Below are positions 11,939-41,960 of a DNA stretch of 51,918 nt, piece after piece. Numbering within the stretch: the stretch's first letter is position 1; each line of letters begins with the position of its first letter. Source of the DNA: a virus (Duplodnaviria; Caudoviricetes); the IMG/VR virus record IMGVR_UViG_3300032318_001383, positions 1 through 51,918 of that record, one strand, 5' to 3'. Position numbers and translations under genes: made by a program. The notes under the pieces are model-generated. The model was not told where the DNA came from, did no database searches, and worked only from the letters and a program-made list of their open reading frames with translations.

Positions 11939-12174
11939 GCAAAGTCCGTTCGAAAAAAATTTGCAAAAAATTTTTTGCTAAGTGCGTTTTTAAACTAAAG
12001 GGGGCCCTTTTGCAAGTCCGACCCGGCAAAAAGTTCCGAATTCTGTTTTGGCCAGGAAAAACTGTGTGAAATCGGGCTAAAGCCTGCGCAGCCCACGCAC
12101 GGGGCCGTTTTGCGGAATCGATGTTAGTGGGCGCTCGCTGTTTCTGAAATGCCCGCCGGGACTCTACCCCAGGC

Positions 12175-12610
12175 GCACGGGCCACGGGCCACGGACCGGG
12201 GCGCATGGCCACCGGCCCACGGTCCGCGTGCCATTGATAGCGGCCGGGGTGTTTGTGATCCTGGCCACCGTCTGGAATCGGTTAACAAACACGCACGCCC
12301 AGGGCGAGCAGCTCACGCGTTACCAGGGCGCAGCTGCGCAGCTCACGGCCCACGGCCAGGCGTTACCAGGGCGCGGCCACCGTTACCAGGGCGAGCAGCT
12401 CACGGCCACCGGCCCACGGGCCACGATACGGCCAGGAACGGCCCAGGGCCCACGGGCCACGGCCCCCGTGCCTGGTTGTGATATTCCAGGGCGCCCACCG
12501 GCGCGACGGGATGCAATGGGCGCAGGGCCACGCCTGGCGCGGGCGAGCTCGTTGCGATACGCGGCCGGCCCGGTCCCTGCGAGAGTTAACAAACAAACAC
12601 GCCCAGGGCG
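12175..12610. repeat. GC-rich non-coding repeat region (heptamer runs plus CCAGGGCG iteron-like repeats); candidate genome terminus or packaging region
   Basis: CCACGGN-type heptamers at 12175-12230. CGTTACCAGGGCG at 12318, 12361 and 12381. GTTAACAAACA..CACGCCCAGGGCG at 12281 and 12585. Confidence 0.75.
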
Positions 12611-12626
12611 CCAGGGTTTCAGGCAT

Positions 12627-18858: not shown

Positions 18859-19285
18859 TACTCTTGAGATTGCGGCAGACAGCCAGGTCTCGGGCGACGA
18901 CGTGAAGTACTACATTGAAAAGCTTCGCCGGGGCAAGAACTGCATCTTCGGCGGGGCGGGAGACTTAGACAAGCTCCTGAAGTTCTACGATTCGGTCGAA
19001 CGAAACGGGGACTTTGACGAGCCCATCGAGGTGGACATCTTGGAGCTGCGCGCAGACGGCATTTACGTCTACGAGAGCACGATCCACCCGGTCAAGGTCC
19101 GTGGTGACTTTTTCTCGGTCGGAACAGGTTCTGCGTACGCCTTAGCGGCCATGCACCTGGGCAAGAGTCCGAGGGAGGCCATAGAGATTGCGTCGATCTT
19201 TGACCCTGTGACGGGTGGGCCGATAGACATGATGACCCTGGAGCCGGCAAGGGCCCCAGGTCGCAGGAAGAAGACCCTACTTTAA
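18833..19285 (+). CDS. Ntn-hydrolase protease, HslV/proteasome beta-subunit-like
   Basis: N-terminal MTTIAA (catalytic Thr), AADSQ, and SVGTGSAYALAAM..G...EAIEIAS.FDP.TGG; AGGAG SD. Confidence 0.8.
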   Translation: MTTIAARLSTLEIAADSQVSGDDVKYYIEKLRRGKNCIFGGAGDLDKLLKFYDSVERNGDFDEPIEVDILELRADGIYVYESTIHPVKVRGDFFSVGTGSAYALAAMHLGKSPREAIEIASIFDPVTGGPIDMMTLEPARAPGRRKKTLL

Positions 19286-19705
19286 GTTGGCCCGGTTAAT
19301 GCGGTAAAGGTCCGAGGTCAGTGCATCGGTCTTATCGATCACTCCCTTAACCATCTCGTACGCAAGGTAGAGTAAGGAAAGCGCGCGGTCGTTGTTGGTG
19401 AGGTCCACGCAGTCATCCAGGGCGGAGTCCATCAGGTGCTGGATGTTAGTGAGCGTGGTGACCACGTCATCAAGCTGGGTGGCCGTGTCGTAAAGACTGG
19501 GCAGTGGTCCTTGGTCCTTGTCCCACTTCGCAACGAGCTGGGCCAGCGGCGTGAGTTTCTCCTTCTTGACCGCACGCTTTACCGTACGGGACAGGGGCTT
19601 ACCTTTTGCCTTCTTAACCGCACTTTTTTGAGTACTCTTTACCGTACGGGATAGGGGCGTACCTTTCGCTTTCTTGATCGCCTTCTTTGCAGGCTTTTTA
19701 ATCAT
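19277..19705 (-). CDS. Lys-rich (histone H1-like N-terminus) protein coupled to the RAMP-like gene
   Basis: Start overlaps the upstream stop (ATGA 19702-19705). KKAKG[TK]PLSRTVK occurs twice, followed by a helical C-terminal domain. Confidence 0.65.
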   Translation of the reverse strand: MIKKPAKKAIKKAKGTPLSRTVKSTQKSAVKKAKGKPLSRTVKRAVKKEKLTPLAQLVAKWDKDQGPLPSLYDTATQLDDVVTTLTNIQHLMDSALDDCVDLTNNDRALSLLYLAYEMVKGVIDKTDALTSDLYRINRANLK

Positions 19706-20319
19706 GAGAGCACCTCGAAGTTGGTGACGTTAAAGCGCCCGTACGTTGGGCGAAAGTCCCCCACGCCAACCAAGCGGCCGGCCGTGTTCAATACGTCTTG
19801 AAAAAGAGTGGGGTCGATATACTCAGGGGTGAGTATTTGAAATTGTAGATCCACTTCCCATCCGATGCGCATGGCAGGTCGGGTTCTATTGACTCCGGCT
19901 CGCTGTACTGTGACCCGACGAGTGTCAAGGTAGTCCCACTCATCGCCACCAAGTGACGCCAGCTGAGTAAGCGATACAACCCCGGCTTTGAACAGATCCA
20001 TCGCGGACTTACGCGGTGAGCGGGGGTCTTGCTTAAACTTCGCAGCATGGATAATGGATTGCCTAAAATACTCTCCTGGGATGCAGAGCTCATTTTTTTC
20101 GTTCCTCCAGACATAGGACTCGATGTCATCGGTCTTCTTGGCGGCCGAGTTCTTGGCGGCCTTGGACTTCGCATCGACTGACTCGCAGTTCCAGCGGTGG
20201 AACAAAAGATCCGCTGCACCTTGGGCCCGTACAGCCACAGCATACGGGAAACCCTGTTCAATGGCGCTCTTGCCACCATTGGTCACTTCACTAACAACTT
20301 TCAAATTGGACTTAGCCAT
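19702..20319 (-). CDS. Stand-alone Cas7/RAMP-like RNA-binding protein (putative Vipr-type effector)
   Basis: 205 aa. N-terminal strand (VAVRAQGAADLLFH), then LCIPGEYFRQSI (compare Cas7/Csm3 xIPGSSLKGxIR), a RRVTVQRAGVNRTRP thumb-like hairpin and a C-terminal Gly loop GVGDFRPTYGRF. AGGAG SD. No other cas genes in the window. Confidence 0.75.
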   Translation of the reverse strand: MAKSNLKVVSEVTNGGKSAIEQGFPYAVAVRAQGAADLLFHRWNCESVDAKSKAAKNSAAKKTDDIESYVWRNEKNELCIPGEYFRQSIIHAAKFKQDPRSPRKSAMDLFKAGVVSLTQLASLGGDEWDYLDTRRVTVQRAGVNRTRPAMRIGWEVDLQFQILTPEYIDPTLFQDVLNTAGRLVGVGDFRPTYGRFNVTNFEVLS

Positions 20320-20340
20320 TCTTACTTTCTCCTATATAAA

Positions 20341-20429
20341 CCCCAAAGGTGGGGAAACCGTACCACGCACTACCGGACCTCAGCTAGACTTACCGCGCCC
20401 TACCATTGCTGGCCTAGCTTAACAAAACC
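20341..20429 (-). ncRNA. Pentamer (GGY-NN) array B with 3' hairpin; putative guide RNA
   Basis: 15 in-phase 5-nt units at 20357-20429; 9 are exact RCC on the plus strand (GGY on minus). Followed on the minus strand by the hairpin CCCCA-CCUU-UGGGG (20341-20354). Confidence 0.65.
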
Positions 20430-20433
20430 CCTA

Positions 20434-20646
20434 AGGGTTCCTTAATGGAACCTTCTTAAACCCAGCCAGGTTCCATTAAAAAACCCTCACCATACCGGAC
20501 CACGTCTCACCATACCCAGCCTAACCCTGCCGAGCCCTACCTTTCCGAACCGTACCGCGCCTAGCCTAACCGCAACTAACCACACCGAACCGCGCCCTAC
20601 CGAACCCCGCATTACCTGACCATGCCTTGTCTTGGCATGCCATACC
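20434..20646 (-). ncRNA. Pentamer (GGY-NN) array A with long 3' hairpin; putative guide RNA
   Basis: 32 in-phase units at 20489-20646; 26 are exact ACC/GCC on the plus strand, separated by variable dinucleotides, with no indels. Followed by a 20-bp stem at 20434-20487. Confidence 0.8.
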
Positions 20647-20651
20647 TCAAA

Positions 20652-20810
20652 CTATTTGTGTCCCAGGGCAATCATCGCCAGCCCCACGTTGCCCAGCATG
20701 TAACCGAAATACGTAACCGCCATCCAGGGCTGGTTATCGCGGTAAAACAAAAGCATCACCACCGCATACTGCACACCAATAAAGGCAATCAACCAGGCGG
20801 GGACGGTCAT
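20652..20810 (-). CDS. Small membrane protein (52 aa)
   Basis: Not in the ORF track. MTVPAWLIAFIGVQYAVVMLLFYRDNQPWMAVTYFGYMLGNVGLAMIALGHK has two hydrophobic segments. Its start overlaps the upstream stop and its stop lies 5 nt before array A. Confidence 0.6.
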   Translation of the reverse strand: MTVPAWLIAFIGVQYAVVMLLFYRDNQPWMAVTYFGYMLGNVGLAMIALGHK

Positions 20811-21169
20811 TGGAGATCCTTGTTATGGCCCTTGAGCCATGAGTCTTGAGCCTTTTGCAGCCACGCGATAACCGTGCTCATGGGAATGATGTCCCCGATC
20901 TGTATGGCCTCGATCTTGGGAACGTCATCATCCTCCTCGGAAATCACGGACGAGAAACACTGGTAATTCACGCCCCCGATTTTGATCTGTAGGAGCTGCA
21001 TGGCAGGAACAGTCTGTTCCTCTTCTTCGGAGAGCTGCTCAAGAGCGTCGAGGACCGCCTGCTCAAAGGGTGTTACCACGAGGACTTGTCCTGGGCGTCT
21101 TTGATGATATCGGCCACGGTCAGTGGGCCGTGGTCCTTGTTCTTTAGTCCTAGATCCAAAGACAGGCAT
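20807..21169 (-). CDS. Hypothetical protein (start uncertain)
   Basis: Part of a run of overlapping small minus-strand ORFs. Confidence 0.45.
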   Translation of the reverse strand: MPVFGSRTKEQGPRPTDRGRYHQRRPGQVLVVTPFEQAVLDALEQLSEEEEQTVPAMQLLQIKIGGVNYQCFSSVISEEDDDVPKIEAIQIGDIIPMSTVIAWLQKAQDSWLKGHNKDLQ

Positions 21170-21313
21170 TCGTTTTCTTTGCTCACGCGCTTTGCATAGC
21201 TGGTCACGCTCTCGAGCTGCTGCTCGAGCGACTTGATGCGTGTAAGCAGGGCCTCCATGACGCCAAAAAAGGATTCGTCCTTTTCCCAGGCAGTCATGTT
21301 CTGGGTCCAGGCT

Positions 21314-23267: not shown

Positions 23268-24029
23268 TACTTGTCTCCTCGCCAGGCCAAAAGACCGATG
23301 ACGATAAAGACAATGGCAACAAACCAAGCAAGTTCTTTAGCTGCTTCTACTGCCTGACCGCTGCGTATCCAAGCGTCTACGACGTAGGGGTTGATGTTTG
23401 AGCTGTTCATATCACTTTCTCCTGTATTAAAAAGGTGCGGGTTCAAACTCCGCAGGATCAACTATACCAAACTTCTTTTTGTTCTTGCAATACCACTTAG
23501 AAAGAATTTCCAACTCCTGCGTGGTTTTAAACGGGTTGCGCAGTCTCTCCTCTGCCAACCCACTGCCTGCCCAAAAGGACAGATCAATCTCCGTGTTTTC
23601 TTCTGTAGGCATCAAACTGTTCCTTTAGCTCATGGTAGCGGCCCAAGAGTTCCGAGTAGGCGTGGTCAGTTTCTGCCCACTTTAGTTTCCACATGTTCAA
23701 TTGCTCAATCCTATCGGCAGATAAAATCAATAGGGACGCCACTTCTGCGTTATCCACCAGGTGTGCTGCGTTGCGTAATCGTTCTACGTAAGTCATTTAA
23801 ATCTCCTGATAAAAGCTTTGATACGCGAGCTAAACCGGTTCGTGGTCCCTGATGCTTTGACCTGGCGCAACCAGTCGTTGCCGTCGTATGCCTTGCCTGT
23901 TTCTTCCAACAAAATCTTCTGCAACCGTTCGACTTCTTTAAGCGCTTGGTCGCGTTGTTTTCTGTAGCGCTCGGAAACGTTTTTCCAGTAGTCGATGTTA
24001 GAACTAAGTCCTGCCTCGCTTAATCTCAT

Positions 24030-39656: not shown

Positions 39657-41960
39657 TTATTTCCCTTCAAGCGCTTTCATCAGCGCATACATACGCTTGG
39701 CACCCAAGCGCCGTGAGCCTTTGCCCATGCCGCGAACTGCTTTAGCGGTGAATACAAACTCACCGTCAGACAGCATCGCTGGGATGGAGTCAGAGGTTCC
39801 GGTACCGGGACCATCTATCTGTCCGTTCTTACGGGGGAAATTGCTAGGGCCGCCCTTTGCAAGAGAAGCGATACCGCCATCAGCAAAGCCATAACGATAC
39901 TGTGGCTGGCCAAAGGCAATTTGTGGCCGATAGTACTGACGACTAGCTAAACCGTATCCCATATAACCTGGATTGTAATACTGTGTTGCAGCGCCACCAG
40001 GAGTGGTGCCGTAAATCTGAGGGTTGCTGGCGAGCAACTGAGCACCGCTTTGCGACCCATACAACCGGTTAGCGTTGTCAGGTGGTGGCTCTTCTTTTGG
40101 GCTAAACCCACCAGCCATGCCAAGAGCGGCAACACCTGCCGCAGCAGCCGGGCCGTAGGTACGAAGCATGCTCGGGTTTAAATCAGAAGAAGCCATGTTT
40201 AGGGCCTCTTTAGGAGTAAATCCAGCCTTGAGGTAGTTTTGATACTGGGGGCTTTGGATTAGTTCTACGTTACTGTAGCTGGCCGGCATAAAGGCCTGCT
40301 TTGCAGCATCGTAATACTGGCCCTCGCTAAGATATCCCATGACGGAAGGAGCCCTGGCGTAAGGGTTCACACCCTCTACAGCGCCTTGAGCACTTCCTAA
40401 GTCCATTCCTGCATAGGAAGGACCAGCCATTGTTCCTTGAGCACTGCTCAAGTCCATGCCTGCGTAAGAAGGACCTGTTGCCCCTTGAGCGCTACTTAGA
40501 TCCATTCCTGCATACGACGGTCCTGTTGCTCCCTGAGCGCTACTTAGATCCATGCCAGCGTAGGATGGGCCCATCGCTCCTTGAGCACTACTCAAGTCCA
40601 TCCCAGCGTAAGACGGGCCACCTAGCGTTCCTTGGGCACTGCTTAGGTCCATACCTAAATAAGAAGGGGCTGGGGCTGGGGCGGGGCCAAGACCCAAGGT
40701 CCCAGCGTCGGTTACAACAGGGCTTTGTACTGCCGCCACATCAAACCCTTGACCAATGCCGCTAGGAGGAGCCTGAATAGCTTGTTGGCCAATAGTTAGG
40801 TCTGTTGTGGGAGTGGTAGCCAACTCTGCCGTAGTAGGGACTGTTGGGGGGTTAATAACATTCCCTGCAGCAGCGTCAATAGAATCTACTGATGTGCCTA
40901 ATTGTTCGGCAGAAATGGAGGTACCAGCAGTTGAAGGCGTTGAAATGCCAAGAAGAGACTTGCCACTATTTACTGCCCTGTCCCACTGGCCAGATATTGT
41001 GGTTGGGCCACCGTAAGAACCCGCCTCAAAGGCACCCATTCCTCCAGTTATTCCTGCCGTAACTCCTGCAGTTAATCCGCCGATTGCACCAGACTTTAAA
41101 GAGTCTTTAAGGTTTTGCCCAGCCAAAATGCTGGAACCAAAGCCACCAACAAAGCCGCCGACAGCGGCCACGCCGGCTGCTGAAGTGACCCCTAAAAAGC
41201 TTGCCGCTGCTGGACCTAAGAAAAAGCCCAAAGCGACAGTCGTAATAATCTTGCCTACTGAAGACTTAGCGAAGTCTTTAACCGCGTTACCTACACTTTT
41301 AAGCGCTTTACCAACTGCTTTGAATGGTGCAGTAACAGCTTTTGTAACGGATTTCCAAAATCCATATTCACGTAAACCCGTACGTGGGTTGATTGTTCCA
41401 ATACCCCCCATCATCTGAAGCATTCTTGCTTCTTGAGGATTGATGTGGGCCAGTATGGTGTCCTGACCACGGCCCATATTCTGCATAGCCGCTGCAATCG
41501 GGCGAAGGTTAGCAATTCCGCCCATGGCAAAAGACTGTACGGGCTGCCCACCGGCTTCTGCCTCAATCTGATCCAAAGCTACCCGTAGGGCGCCAAAGAA
41601 CATCGGGTCAAACTGCTCAGGCAAAAGGTCTTCTGGAAACTCGTCTGCCAACAGGTCTTGGCGGATTGCGTCATAGTTTTGCGGATCGCGCAAGATAACT
41701 TCGACAATTTGTTGCAAAGCATCAATAATCTCCTGAGGGAGACGTAGCCCTGATAGGGCCTGACGCAGTTGCCGAACTGCGGCTGGGTCAACCTGTTCCG
41801 CTGCCGTCAAGATCTCGGAGCTGAACTCCTTGGGAGATATCTGACCGCGCATTTGTTCAAATGCAGCCGAGGCAGCCGGGTCAAACATTTGGGCCGGTGG
41901 CTGTGCTGTGGGGCCTTGCATGCCTCCCATCGGGAGTGCCATGATTCCTTGGTCTTCCAT
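39657..41960 (-). CDS. Internal virion / ejection protein with TM segments and tandem repeats
   Basis: GRGQDTILAHINPQEA..L...GG.GTINPRTGL, Gly-rich TM region, six 16-17 aa repeats, and C-terminal GPGTGTSDSIPAMLSDGEFVFTAKAV. Confidence 0.65.
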   Translation of the reverse strand: MEDQGIMALPMGGMQGPTAQPPAQMFDPAASAAFEQMRGQISPKEFSSEILTAAEQVDPAAVRQLRQALSGLRLPQEIIDALQQIVEVILRDPQNYDAIRQDLLADEFPEDLLPEQFDPMFFGALRVALDQIEAEAGGQPVQSFAMGGIANLRPIAAAMQNMGRGQDTILAHINPQEARMLQMMGGIGTINPRTGLREYGFWKSVTKAVTAPFKAVGKALKSVGNAVKDFAKSSVGKIITTVALGFFLGPAAASFLGVTSAAGVAAVGGFVGGFGSSILAGQNLKDSLKSGAIGGLTAGVTAGITGGMGAFEAGSYGGPTTISGQWDRAVNSGKSLLGISTPSTAGTSISAEQLGTSVDSIDAAAGNVINPPTVPTTAELATTPTTDLTIGQQAIQAPPSGIGQGFDVAAVQSPVVTDAGTLGLGPAPAPAPSYLGMDLSSAQGTLGGPSYAGMDLSSAQGAMGPSYAGMDLSSAQGATGPSYAGMDLSSAQGATGPSYAGMDLSSAQGTMAGPSYAGMDLGSAQGAVEGVNPYARAPSVMGYLSEGQYYDAAKQAFMPASYSNVELIQSPQYQNYLKAGFTPKEALNMASSDLNPSMLRTYGPAAAAGVAALGMAGGFSPKEEPPPDNANRLYGSQSGAQLLASNPQIYGTTPGGAATQYYNPGYMGYGLASRQYYRPQIAFGQPQYRYGFADGGIASLAKGGPSNFPRKNGQIDGPGTGTSDSIPAMLSDGEFVFTAKAVRGMGKGSRRLGAKRMYALMKALEGK
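40381..40667 (-). repeat. Six in-frame tandem repeats (GPSYAGMDLSSAQGA, 48-51 nt)
   Basis: Visible in both protein and DNA; synonymous sites differ between copies. Confidence 0.9.

Follow-up and report, generated by a model that had tools for sequence, protein, structure and literature searches.

The viral DNA analysed here, a stretch of 51,918 nt (the window), carries 170 bp upstream of a small minus-strand gene a run of 32 pentamers, each combining a near-constant triplet with a variable dinucleotide (array A, Table 1). Does this array carry guide information and, if so, how is that information organized? The question is framed by VIPR, a gene-silencing system described in 2026 (10.64898/2026.04.26.720920). 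The available parts of four preprints (10.64898/2026.04.26.720920, 10.64898/2026.04.26.720927, 10.64898/2026.10.15.759431, 10.64898/2026.10.21.760802) describe vrRNAs of 9–16 repeats with one Vipr subunit per repeat, NN dinucleotides that pair with the target with one target base skipped, transcriptional repression, and satellites, prophages and other VIPR loci as targets. Array A is almost certainly a genuine vrRNA array belonging to a phage VIPR system. We consider probable the whole model, in which it serves as a guide against rival elements, with several footprints and a stem as its boundary.

Table 1. Features of the locus, in minus-strand order; positions are those of the window
Feature	Position	Strand	Description
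52-aa hydrophobic ORF	20652..20810	-	Stop 5 nt before array A; upstream boundary of the array
Array A	20487..20648	-	32 GGY/NN pentamers plus leading conserved NN; likely vrRNA precursor with about three short target footprints
Stem, 20–22 bp	20432..20489; arms about 20468–20489 and 20432–20453	-	Fold z -6.18, inverted repeat, covariation
Array B	20355..20429	-	15 units, 9 canonical GGY; likely second vrRNA
GC hairpin and T-rich run	20329..20354	-	T-rich run 20341–20354, followed by AGGAG ribosome-binding-like site 20329–20333
vipr gene	19702..20319	-	205-aa stand-alone RAMP/Cas7-like protein (P0001)
142-aa ORF	19277..19705	-	Overlaps vipr stop; Lys-rich duplicated N-terminus; candidate accessory (vap) gene

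A pentameric array upstream of a Vipr gene

Re-parsing of positions 20489–20646 reproduced the pattern of the initial annotation exactly: 32 in-phase triplets without a phase slip, 26 of them RCC (GGY-NN on the minus strand), and an identical NN string. The predicted signature of three constrained and two free positions is present, with plus-strand entropies of 1.13, 0.73, 0.20, 1.95 and 1.78 bits, as is the predicted period of five, with autocorrelation of 0.54, 0.55, 0.62 and 0.53 at lags 5, 10, 15 and 20 and 0.16–0.32 at every other lag up to 19. When the whole window was scanned for in-phase GGY, the best 12-unit segment of array A scored 11, whereas the best score anywhere in 30 mononucleotide shuffles of the window was 4–6; weaker peaks of 6 near 41170 and 5 near 23900 lie inside the shuffle range. 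The array extends two bases beyond the earlier parse at the RNA 3' end, to 20487, and is preceded by a conserved NN at 20647–48. The 6-bp inverted repeat reported near the RNA 5' end (20621–26/20634–39) is there, but a functional hairpin finds no support: its fold is not significant (z -0.35), and four relatives (L006, L245, L010 and L252) keep the NN pairs with different triplets at this site, so the hairpin is not needed to keep NN. An Rfam search of the locus returned only a chance microRNA match (E 0.74), with no hammerhead or other family.

The gene downstream encodes a Vipr. A Pfam scan of the 205-aa protein gave nothing significant, a sequence search found 6682 homologs, and its sole PDB sequence match is SUSP1 Vipr (36pp; E 3.1e-5 with the single sequence, 5.6e-10 as a profile). 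The direct alignment to 36pp covers SUSP1 residues 116–188. Alignment by hhalign to the homolog of phage Moogle reached 97.3% over 160 columns, identity to this Moogle/SUSP1-like protein being about 29% over aligned columns, and the aligned C-terminal segment of the Moogle homolog reads the same as 36pp. Via the Moogle homolog, H41, E83, R147, D188, F189 and R190 align with positions 17, 71, 138, 177, 178 and 179; SUSP1 residues H17, E71, R138, D177, W178 and R179 contact the GGY motif according to the available part of a preprint (10.64898/2026.04.26.720927). SUSP1 K33 aligns with an alanine by the same route. The AlphaFold model (pLDDT 86.9) resembles Cas7/Csm/Cmr RAMPs (best Foldseek E 4.9e-7; VIA Z 10.8, rmsd 3.5, 152 aligned). 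GenBank holds a 96.6% identical Vipr protein in phage DSL-LC04, and the closest homolog in cellular assemblies, at 74%, lies on a Burkholderiales MAG contig. A momo record has a 128-aa CDS alone at the match and was left unused. Vipr homologs at ~61% identity also occur in many Phycisphaerales assemblies (L535–L563), some on large contigs.

The window covers most of the genome of a tailed phage and includes genes for capsid, portal, terminase, PolA, helicases and primase. PolA is 94% identical to that of DSL-LC04 and 51% to that of Pelagibacter phage HTVC023P. The available part of its source (PMC10611076) describes DSL-LC04 as a lake phage assembled from metagenomic data, its predicted host being a member of Pseudomonadota. 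A scan of 34 ORFs found no cas operon, and none of the window's tandem repeats is a CRISPR repeat-spacer array; a weak secondary PHROG match, 'CRISPR/Cas system associated', falls on an exonuclease 13 kb from vipr.

Co-location and the one-base skip across the Vipr family

To the window we added 160 homologous loci and DSL-LC04. Of these, 124 have ≥400 nt of flanking sequence on either side of vipr, a count that includes the window and any duplicates. A GGY/NN array flanks the Vipr homolog on the same strand in 120 of them and on the opposite strand in one. Long arrays are common: 151 of 360 distinct family arrays exceed 16 units. At four loci (L069, L036, L076 and L078) in-phase arrays of 56–98 units lie beside Vipr homologs.

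Sliding 10-unit windows of 203 arrays were compared with 82 sequences at a threshold of 18 of 20 bases. A skip of one base gave 79 matches from 17 arrays, skips of zero and two gave 9 from 5 and 10 from 6. A second set (235 arrays, loci at ≥64% identity, against 222 sequences) gave 42, 12 and 11 matches for skips 1, 0 and 2, from 13, 9 and 8 arrays, so that here the skip-1 excess rests on few arrays. The matches come from family arrays other than those of the window and are redundant across similar loci, and each set includes ~12 chance matches. The skipped base falls at codon position 3, by longest ORF, for 17 of the 27 skip-1 arrays (~9 expected), and none of the 27 matches its own locus. 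Judged from these alignments, the NN code with a one-nucleotide skip holds at the family level.

Coherent skip-1 cases read the vipr genes of other phages, a gene close upstream of vipr (15 loci), and ORFs that we take, from their translated sequence, to encode helicases. A vipr homolog in L282 (2118–2807) contains a ~72-nt in-frame insertion that is itself an 11-unit GGY/NN array; L288 has the same, longer match. Read with a 1-nt skip, the embedded array matches the codons for D-Y-L-D-T-R-R-V in other vipr genes at 18–19 of 20 bases in 20 loci, and vipr of the window at 17 of 22. The D-Y-L-D-T-R-R-V copy of L282 itself, just downstream of the insertion, has non-matching codons. We read the insertion as a guide embedded in an effector gene beside its own escaped target site.

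Two of the coherent cases concern single arrays. An array of L014, at -77 from vipr, has an antisense, wobble-aligned match to the presumed helicase ORF of L012, a 97% relative of this phage, with 18 of 20 in two windows; phages of the clade may be targeting one another here, or the match may be due to chance. An L061 array (+2156) matches a gene 212–437 nt upstream of vipr in 15 other loci, whose translation, as we judge it, resembles DUF669-type proteins.

The initial annotation had proposed that the array is no slippage microsatellite, that its NN positions are informative and that the RNA is the minus strand. The family arrays, the skip-rule signal and the same-strand co-location with vipr bear out all three.

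Conserved dinucleotides, modular blocks and the search for targets

Divergent NN between conserved GGY triplets had been expected among related phages. For comparison, 23 loci have ≥88% Vipr identity; 13 lack an anchor at one or both ends of the array and were left out, which leaves 10 distinct arrays anchored at both ends. Identity to the window across these related, non-independent arrays, aligned on total identity, is 0.96, 0.96, 0.76, 0.91 and 0.92 for positions G, G, Y, N and N, and four-fold sites of vipr in the same loci, two of which are truncated or offset, are 0.74 identical. The third triplet position (Y3) therefore behaves like a neutral site and NN does not. The expected NN divergence is not seen for array A. 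NN is in fact nearly as conserved as GG, close to the pattern named beforehand as one that would refute the idea; since the conserved NN stand beside a drifting Y3, the guide idea survives, and the comparison points to selection acting on the target code of array A.

Length changes follow the unit. Among relatives, 15 of 18 indels in array A are multiples of 5 nt (5, 10 or 15 nt), and internal gains or losses of whole units give array lengths of 126–175 nt with the flanking blocks kept. Three NN blocks, at about units 0–5, 12–16 and 23–28, recur in 26, 16 and 16 of 162 loci, counts that come from related samples and are not independent events. The blocks appear in differing combinations down to 76–84% Vipr identity: in L254 the first and third are contiguous and the second is missing, in L250 the second and third lie in two different arrays, and in the L010/L252 group the first sits within another guide, with different triplets. 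Short NN blocks that are kept and reshuffled by whole-unit indels suggest several fixed footprints in one long RNA. Most simply, the pattern would reflect selection on several short footprints that are moved about as modules. For SUSP1 vrRNA4, the available text of 10.64898/2026.10.15.759431 reports a footprint of six units.

In the mechanism that we propose, array A, just upstream of vipr, is likely transcribed as a VIPR guide RNA on which Vipr would polymerize with one subunit per pentamer. The NN pairs would read double-stranded DNA, two bases in every three, with silencing of genes of competing mobile elements as the likely outcome. Filament formation, the triplex R-loop and transcriptional repression are taken from the available parts of published SUSP1 work, not from this locus. 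The 32 units would represent not one guide but about three conserved 5–8-unit footprints, joined and reshuffled by whole-unit indels, and the targets would be conserved codons in rival phage or satellite genes absent from the samples searched.

Array A might instead be one ~32-unit guide for one long site, or a set of staggered 10–12-unit guides with fixed boundaries. It has no internal separator and its phase is unbroken; staggered arrays are mentioned in 10.64898/2026.04.26.720920, and the contiguous first and third blocks of L254 look as if an insertion had split one ancestral guide. Whole-unit indels count against a single long guide because each would break one long site, and with relatives varying internally between kept flanking blocks we regard this alternative as unlikely.

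Slightly less likely still is that array A serves mainly as a Vipr-binding scaffold or decoy, for operon autoregulation or for soaking up a rival's Vipr, or guides Vipr to host DNA. Its position upstream of vipr in the same orientation would suit such a role, the available part of one preprint describes decoy vrRNAs against host repeats (10.64898/2026.10.15.759431), and no viral target was found; a pure scaffold, however, would not keep NN above Y3.

No search returned a target above chance for array A or B. In the window and 81 loci, skips 0–2 gave nothing above 16 of 20. Across 162 loci and 222 sequences (5.1 Mb, both strands) the two arrays showed no skip-1 excess, with 5, 9 and 9 distinct exact six-unit matches for skips 0, 1 and 2. 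One block allowed ≤3 mismatches gave 25 matches in 45 related phage records versus 23 for the control. Exact IMG/VR scans with seven patterns, three derived partly or wholly from relatives' arrays, yielded 13, 3, at least 120 (120 listed of ~730), 16, 91, 44 and 0 stretches, and among the matches listed none extended convincingly into neighbouring units. Searches of cellular DNA used the third block only: 1 match versus 1 control in 5 genomes, and 4 versus 3 in 401 genomes of one Burkholderiales-family sample, a result that speaks against a host target, with the host itself uncertain. Because the exact scans need ≥14 fixed bases with zero mismatch, a footprint that is imperfect or only 6–8 units long would escape them or be buried among chance matches, and we treat the blank as weak evidence. 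Individual candidates were discarded: the 8 stretches examined, of the 13 from one IMG/VR scan, lie in unrelated ORFs, block 1 matches the start of the phage's own downstream gene in only four units, and no site was found to support the idea that block 1 reads a -10 promoter box.

Two last alternatives are very improbable. A translated low-complexity ORF could draw on one minus-strand frame that is stop-free across the array (~54 codons) and on a 75-aa plus-strand ORF starting at 20622, but the period is five, relatives' indels of 1, 5, 10 and 15 nt shift the frame in 15 of 18 cases, and the 97% relative DSL-LC04 has no CDS annotated at the array. Whole-unit indels do show slippage or recombination at work, yet a decayed, functionless microsatellite is largely refuted by the skip-rule signal and by arrays strictly co-located and co-oriented with vipr, and NN entropy is near maximal within the array while NN is conserved between genomes.

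A covarying stem, a second array and comparison with known systems

On the minus strand the 52-aa ORF is followed, after 5 nt, by array A, the long stem, array B, a small hairpin, the ribosome-binding-like site, the 205-aa ORF and the overlapping 142-aa ORF. The stem stands directly after array A. Across 12 distinct stems and 16 columns, 191 of 192 cells are paired, and 7 of the columns show changes on both sides; choosing the partner arm by its best pairing biases this count towards pairing. In relatives the same stem encloses a further 9–11-unit array, of which the 14-nt loop here keeps a 2-unit remnant: the enclosed guide is almost lost in this phage. L004, L007 and L245 are without this stem. 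L003 and L254 allow another pairing, in which the 3' arm of the stem meets the sequence immediately ahead of the vipr ribosome-binding site and array B is enclosed; such a fold may act as a switch that couples guide processing to translation of vipr.

Array B reaches 8 in-phase GGY in its best 12-unit window of the whole-window scan. Compared with 16 distinct relatives by anchoring at the 3' end, its NN are 0.45 and 0.39 identical, so the turnover of NN anticipated between relatives applies to array B and not to array A (0.91, 0.92). The sequences after the two arrays are unlike each other. A terminator-like consensus match at the T-rich run occurs at chance frequency, and a search of 19200–21300 for sigma-70 promoters found none.

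RNase III stems in rRNA operons and in phage T7 early RNA have arms of ~20 bp that flank a cargo RNA. The arms here are similar, with a GGY/NN array as cargo and cleavage putative. We infer that the RNA is cut from a minus-strand operon transcript, the long stem forming its 3' boundary and probably an RNase III-type site; by analogy, such a cut would free A, the middle guide and B. A paper search found none joining VIPR with RNase III, guide RNA and phage. As a tentative extension, this freshwater phage clade may use tail-less 'poly-guides' of selected, module-recombined 5–8-unit footprints, together with exchangeable stem-framed cassettes cut by a host double-strand RNase.

The closest published comparison is the type II VIPR of SUSP1, as far as the available parts of its descriptions go (10.64898/2026.04.26.720920, 10.64898/2026.04.26.720927, 10.64898/2026.10.15.759431; PDB 36pp). 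Common to both are a phage-borne stand-alone RAMP of ~200 aa that is directly followed by a second small gene, flanking sense-strand GGY/NN (YNNGG) arrays, 1-nt-skip matching in the family, and family guides directed against other vipr genes and genes in related phages; the six RNA-contact positions aligned through the Moogle homolog, K33 excepted, may correspond as well. Array A differs in its 32 units, about twice the usual 9–16. There is no repeated 40-nt tail; the long covarying stem, which in relatives encloses another guide, stands in its place, and the type II definition of 9–16 repeats with an invariant structured tail does not describe this locus. Every array here is upstream of vipr, NN is conserved among relatives, and the 142-aa downstream protein shows no similarity (BLASTP E 8.6) to what Moogle encodes at that position. 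Types I and III–VII, which include staggered and hammerhead-interspersed arrays (10.64898/2026.04.26.720920), share the repeat code and vary in array architecture; the hammerhead is absent here. Class 1 CRISPR backbones (Cas7/Csm3/Cmr4 with crRNA) have the RAMP fold in common, but this locus has no repeat-spacer array or cas operon, and its guide is 5-nt periodic where theirs is a contiguous spacer. A phage-borne locus without CRISPR array or cas operon, as in minimal VIPR, is what we find, with phage genes around vipr.

VIPR being already published, the locus adds comparative value and is not a new system; the clade may already be among the 667 systems of the discovery preprint, given the near-identical DSL-LC04 protein in GenBank. 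Neither the long modular array nor the stem-framed cassette was found in the available text of the VIPR descriptions. Between Vipr proteins 91–100% identical, the accompanying arrays differ in whole units and in exchanged guide cassettes, and this small clade makes vrRNA processing and the origin of new guides directly testable. Should a single long RNA act at several sites, it would amount to a compact multiplexed repressor; if the poly-guide and cassette reading is true, it would show how VIPR gains new specificities with no Cas1-type acquisition machinery.

The 142-aa ORF is present in 23 of 23 loci with ≥88% Vipr identity and enough downstream DNA (window included) and is more variable among relatives (56–94%, some 32–37%) than Vipr. 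It has no Pfam or PHROG match, and ESM Atlas returned only unnamed clusters. A 60-bp tandem duplication at 19577–19689 repeats its Lys-rich N-terminal segment.

Three other repeat regions of the window lie away from the locus. A GC-rich (66%) segment between terL and the next large ORF, 12160–12620, has many dispersed direct repeats of 13–34 nt and is a possible origin or packaging region. An intergenic 27-nt AT-rich inverted repeat (17907–17933/18082–18108) is 93% complementary, its copies 148 nt apart. At 40384–40667, a 48-bp tandem repeat of ~6 copies encodes a 16-aa repeat in the 767-aa ORF 39657–41960.
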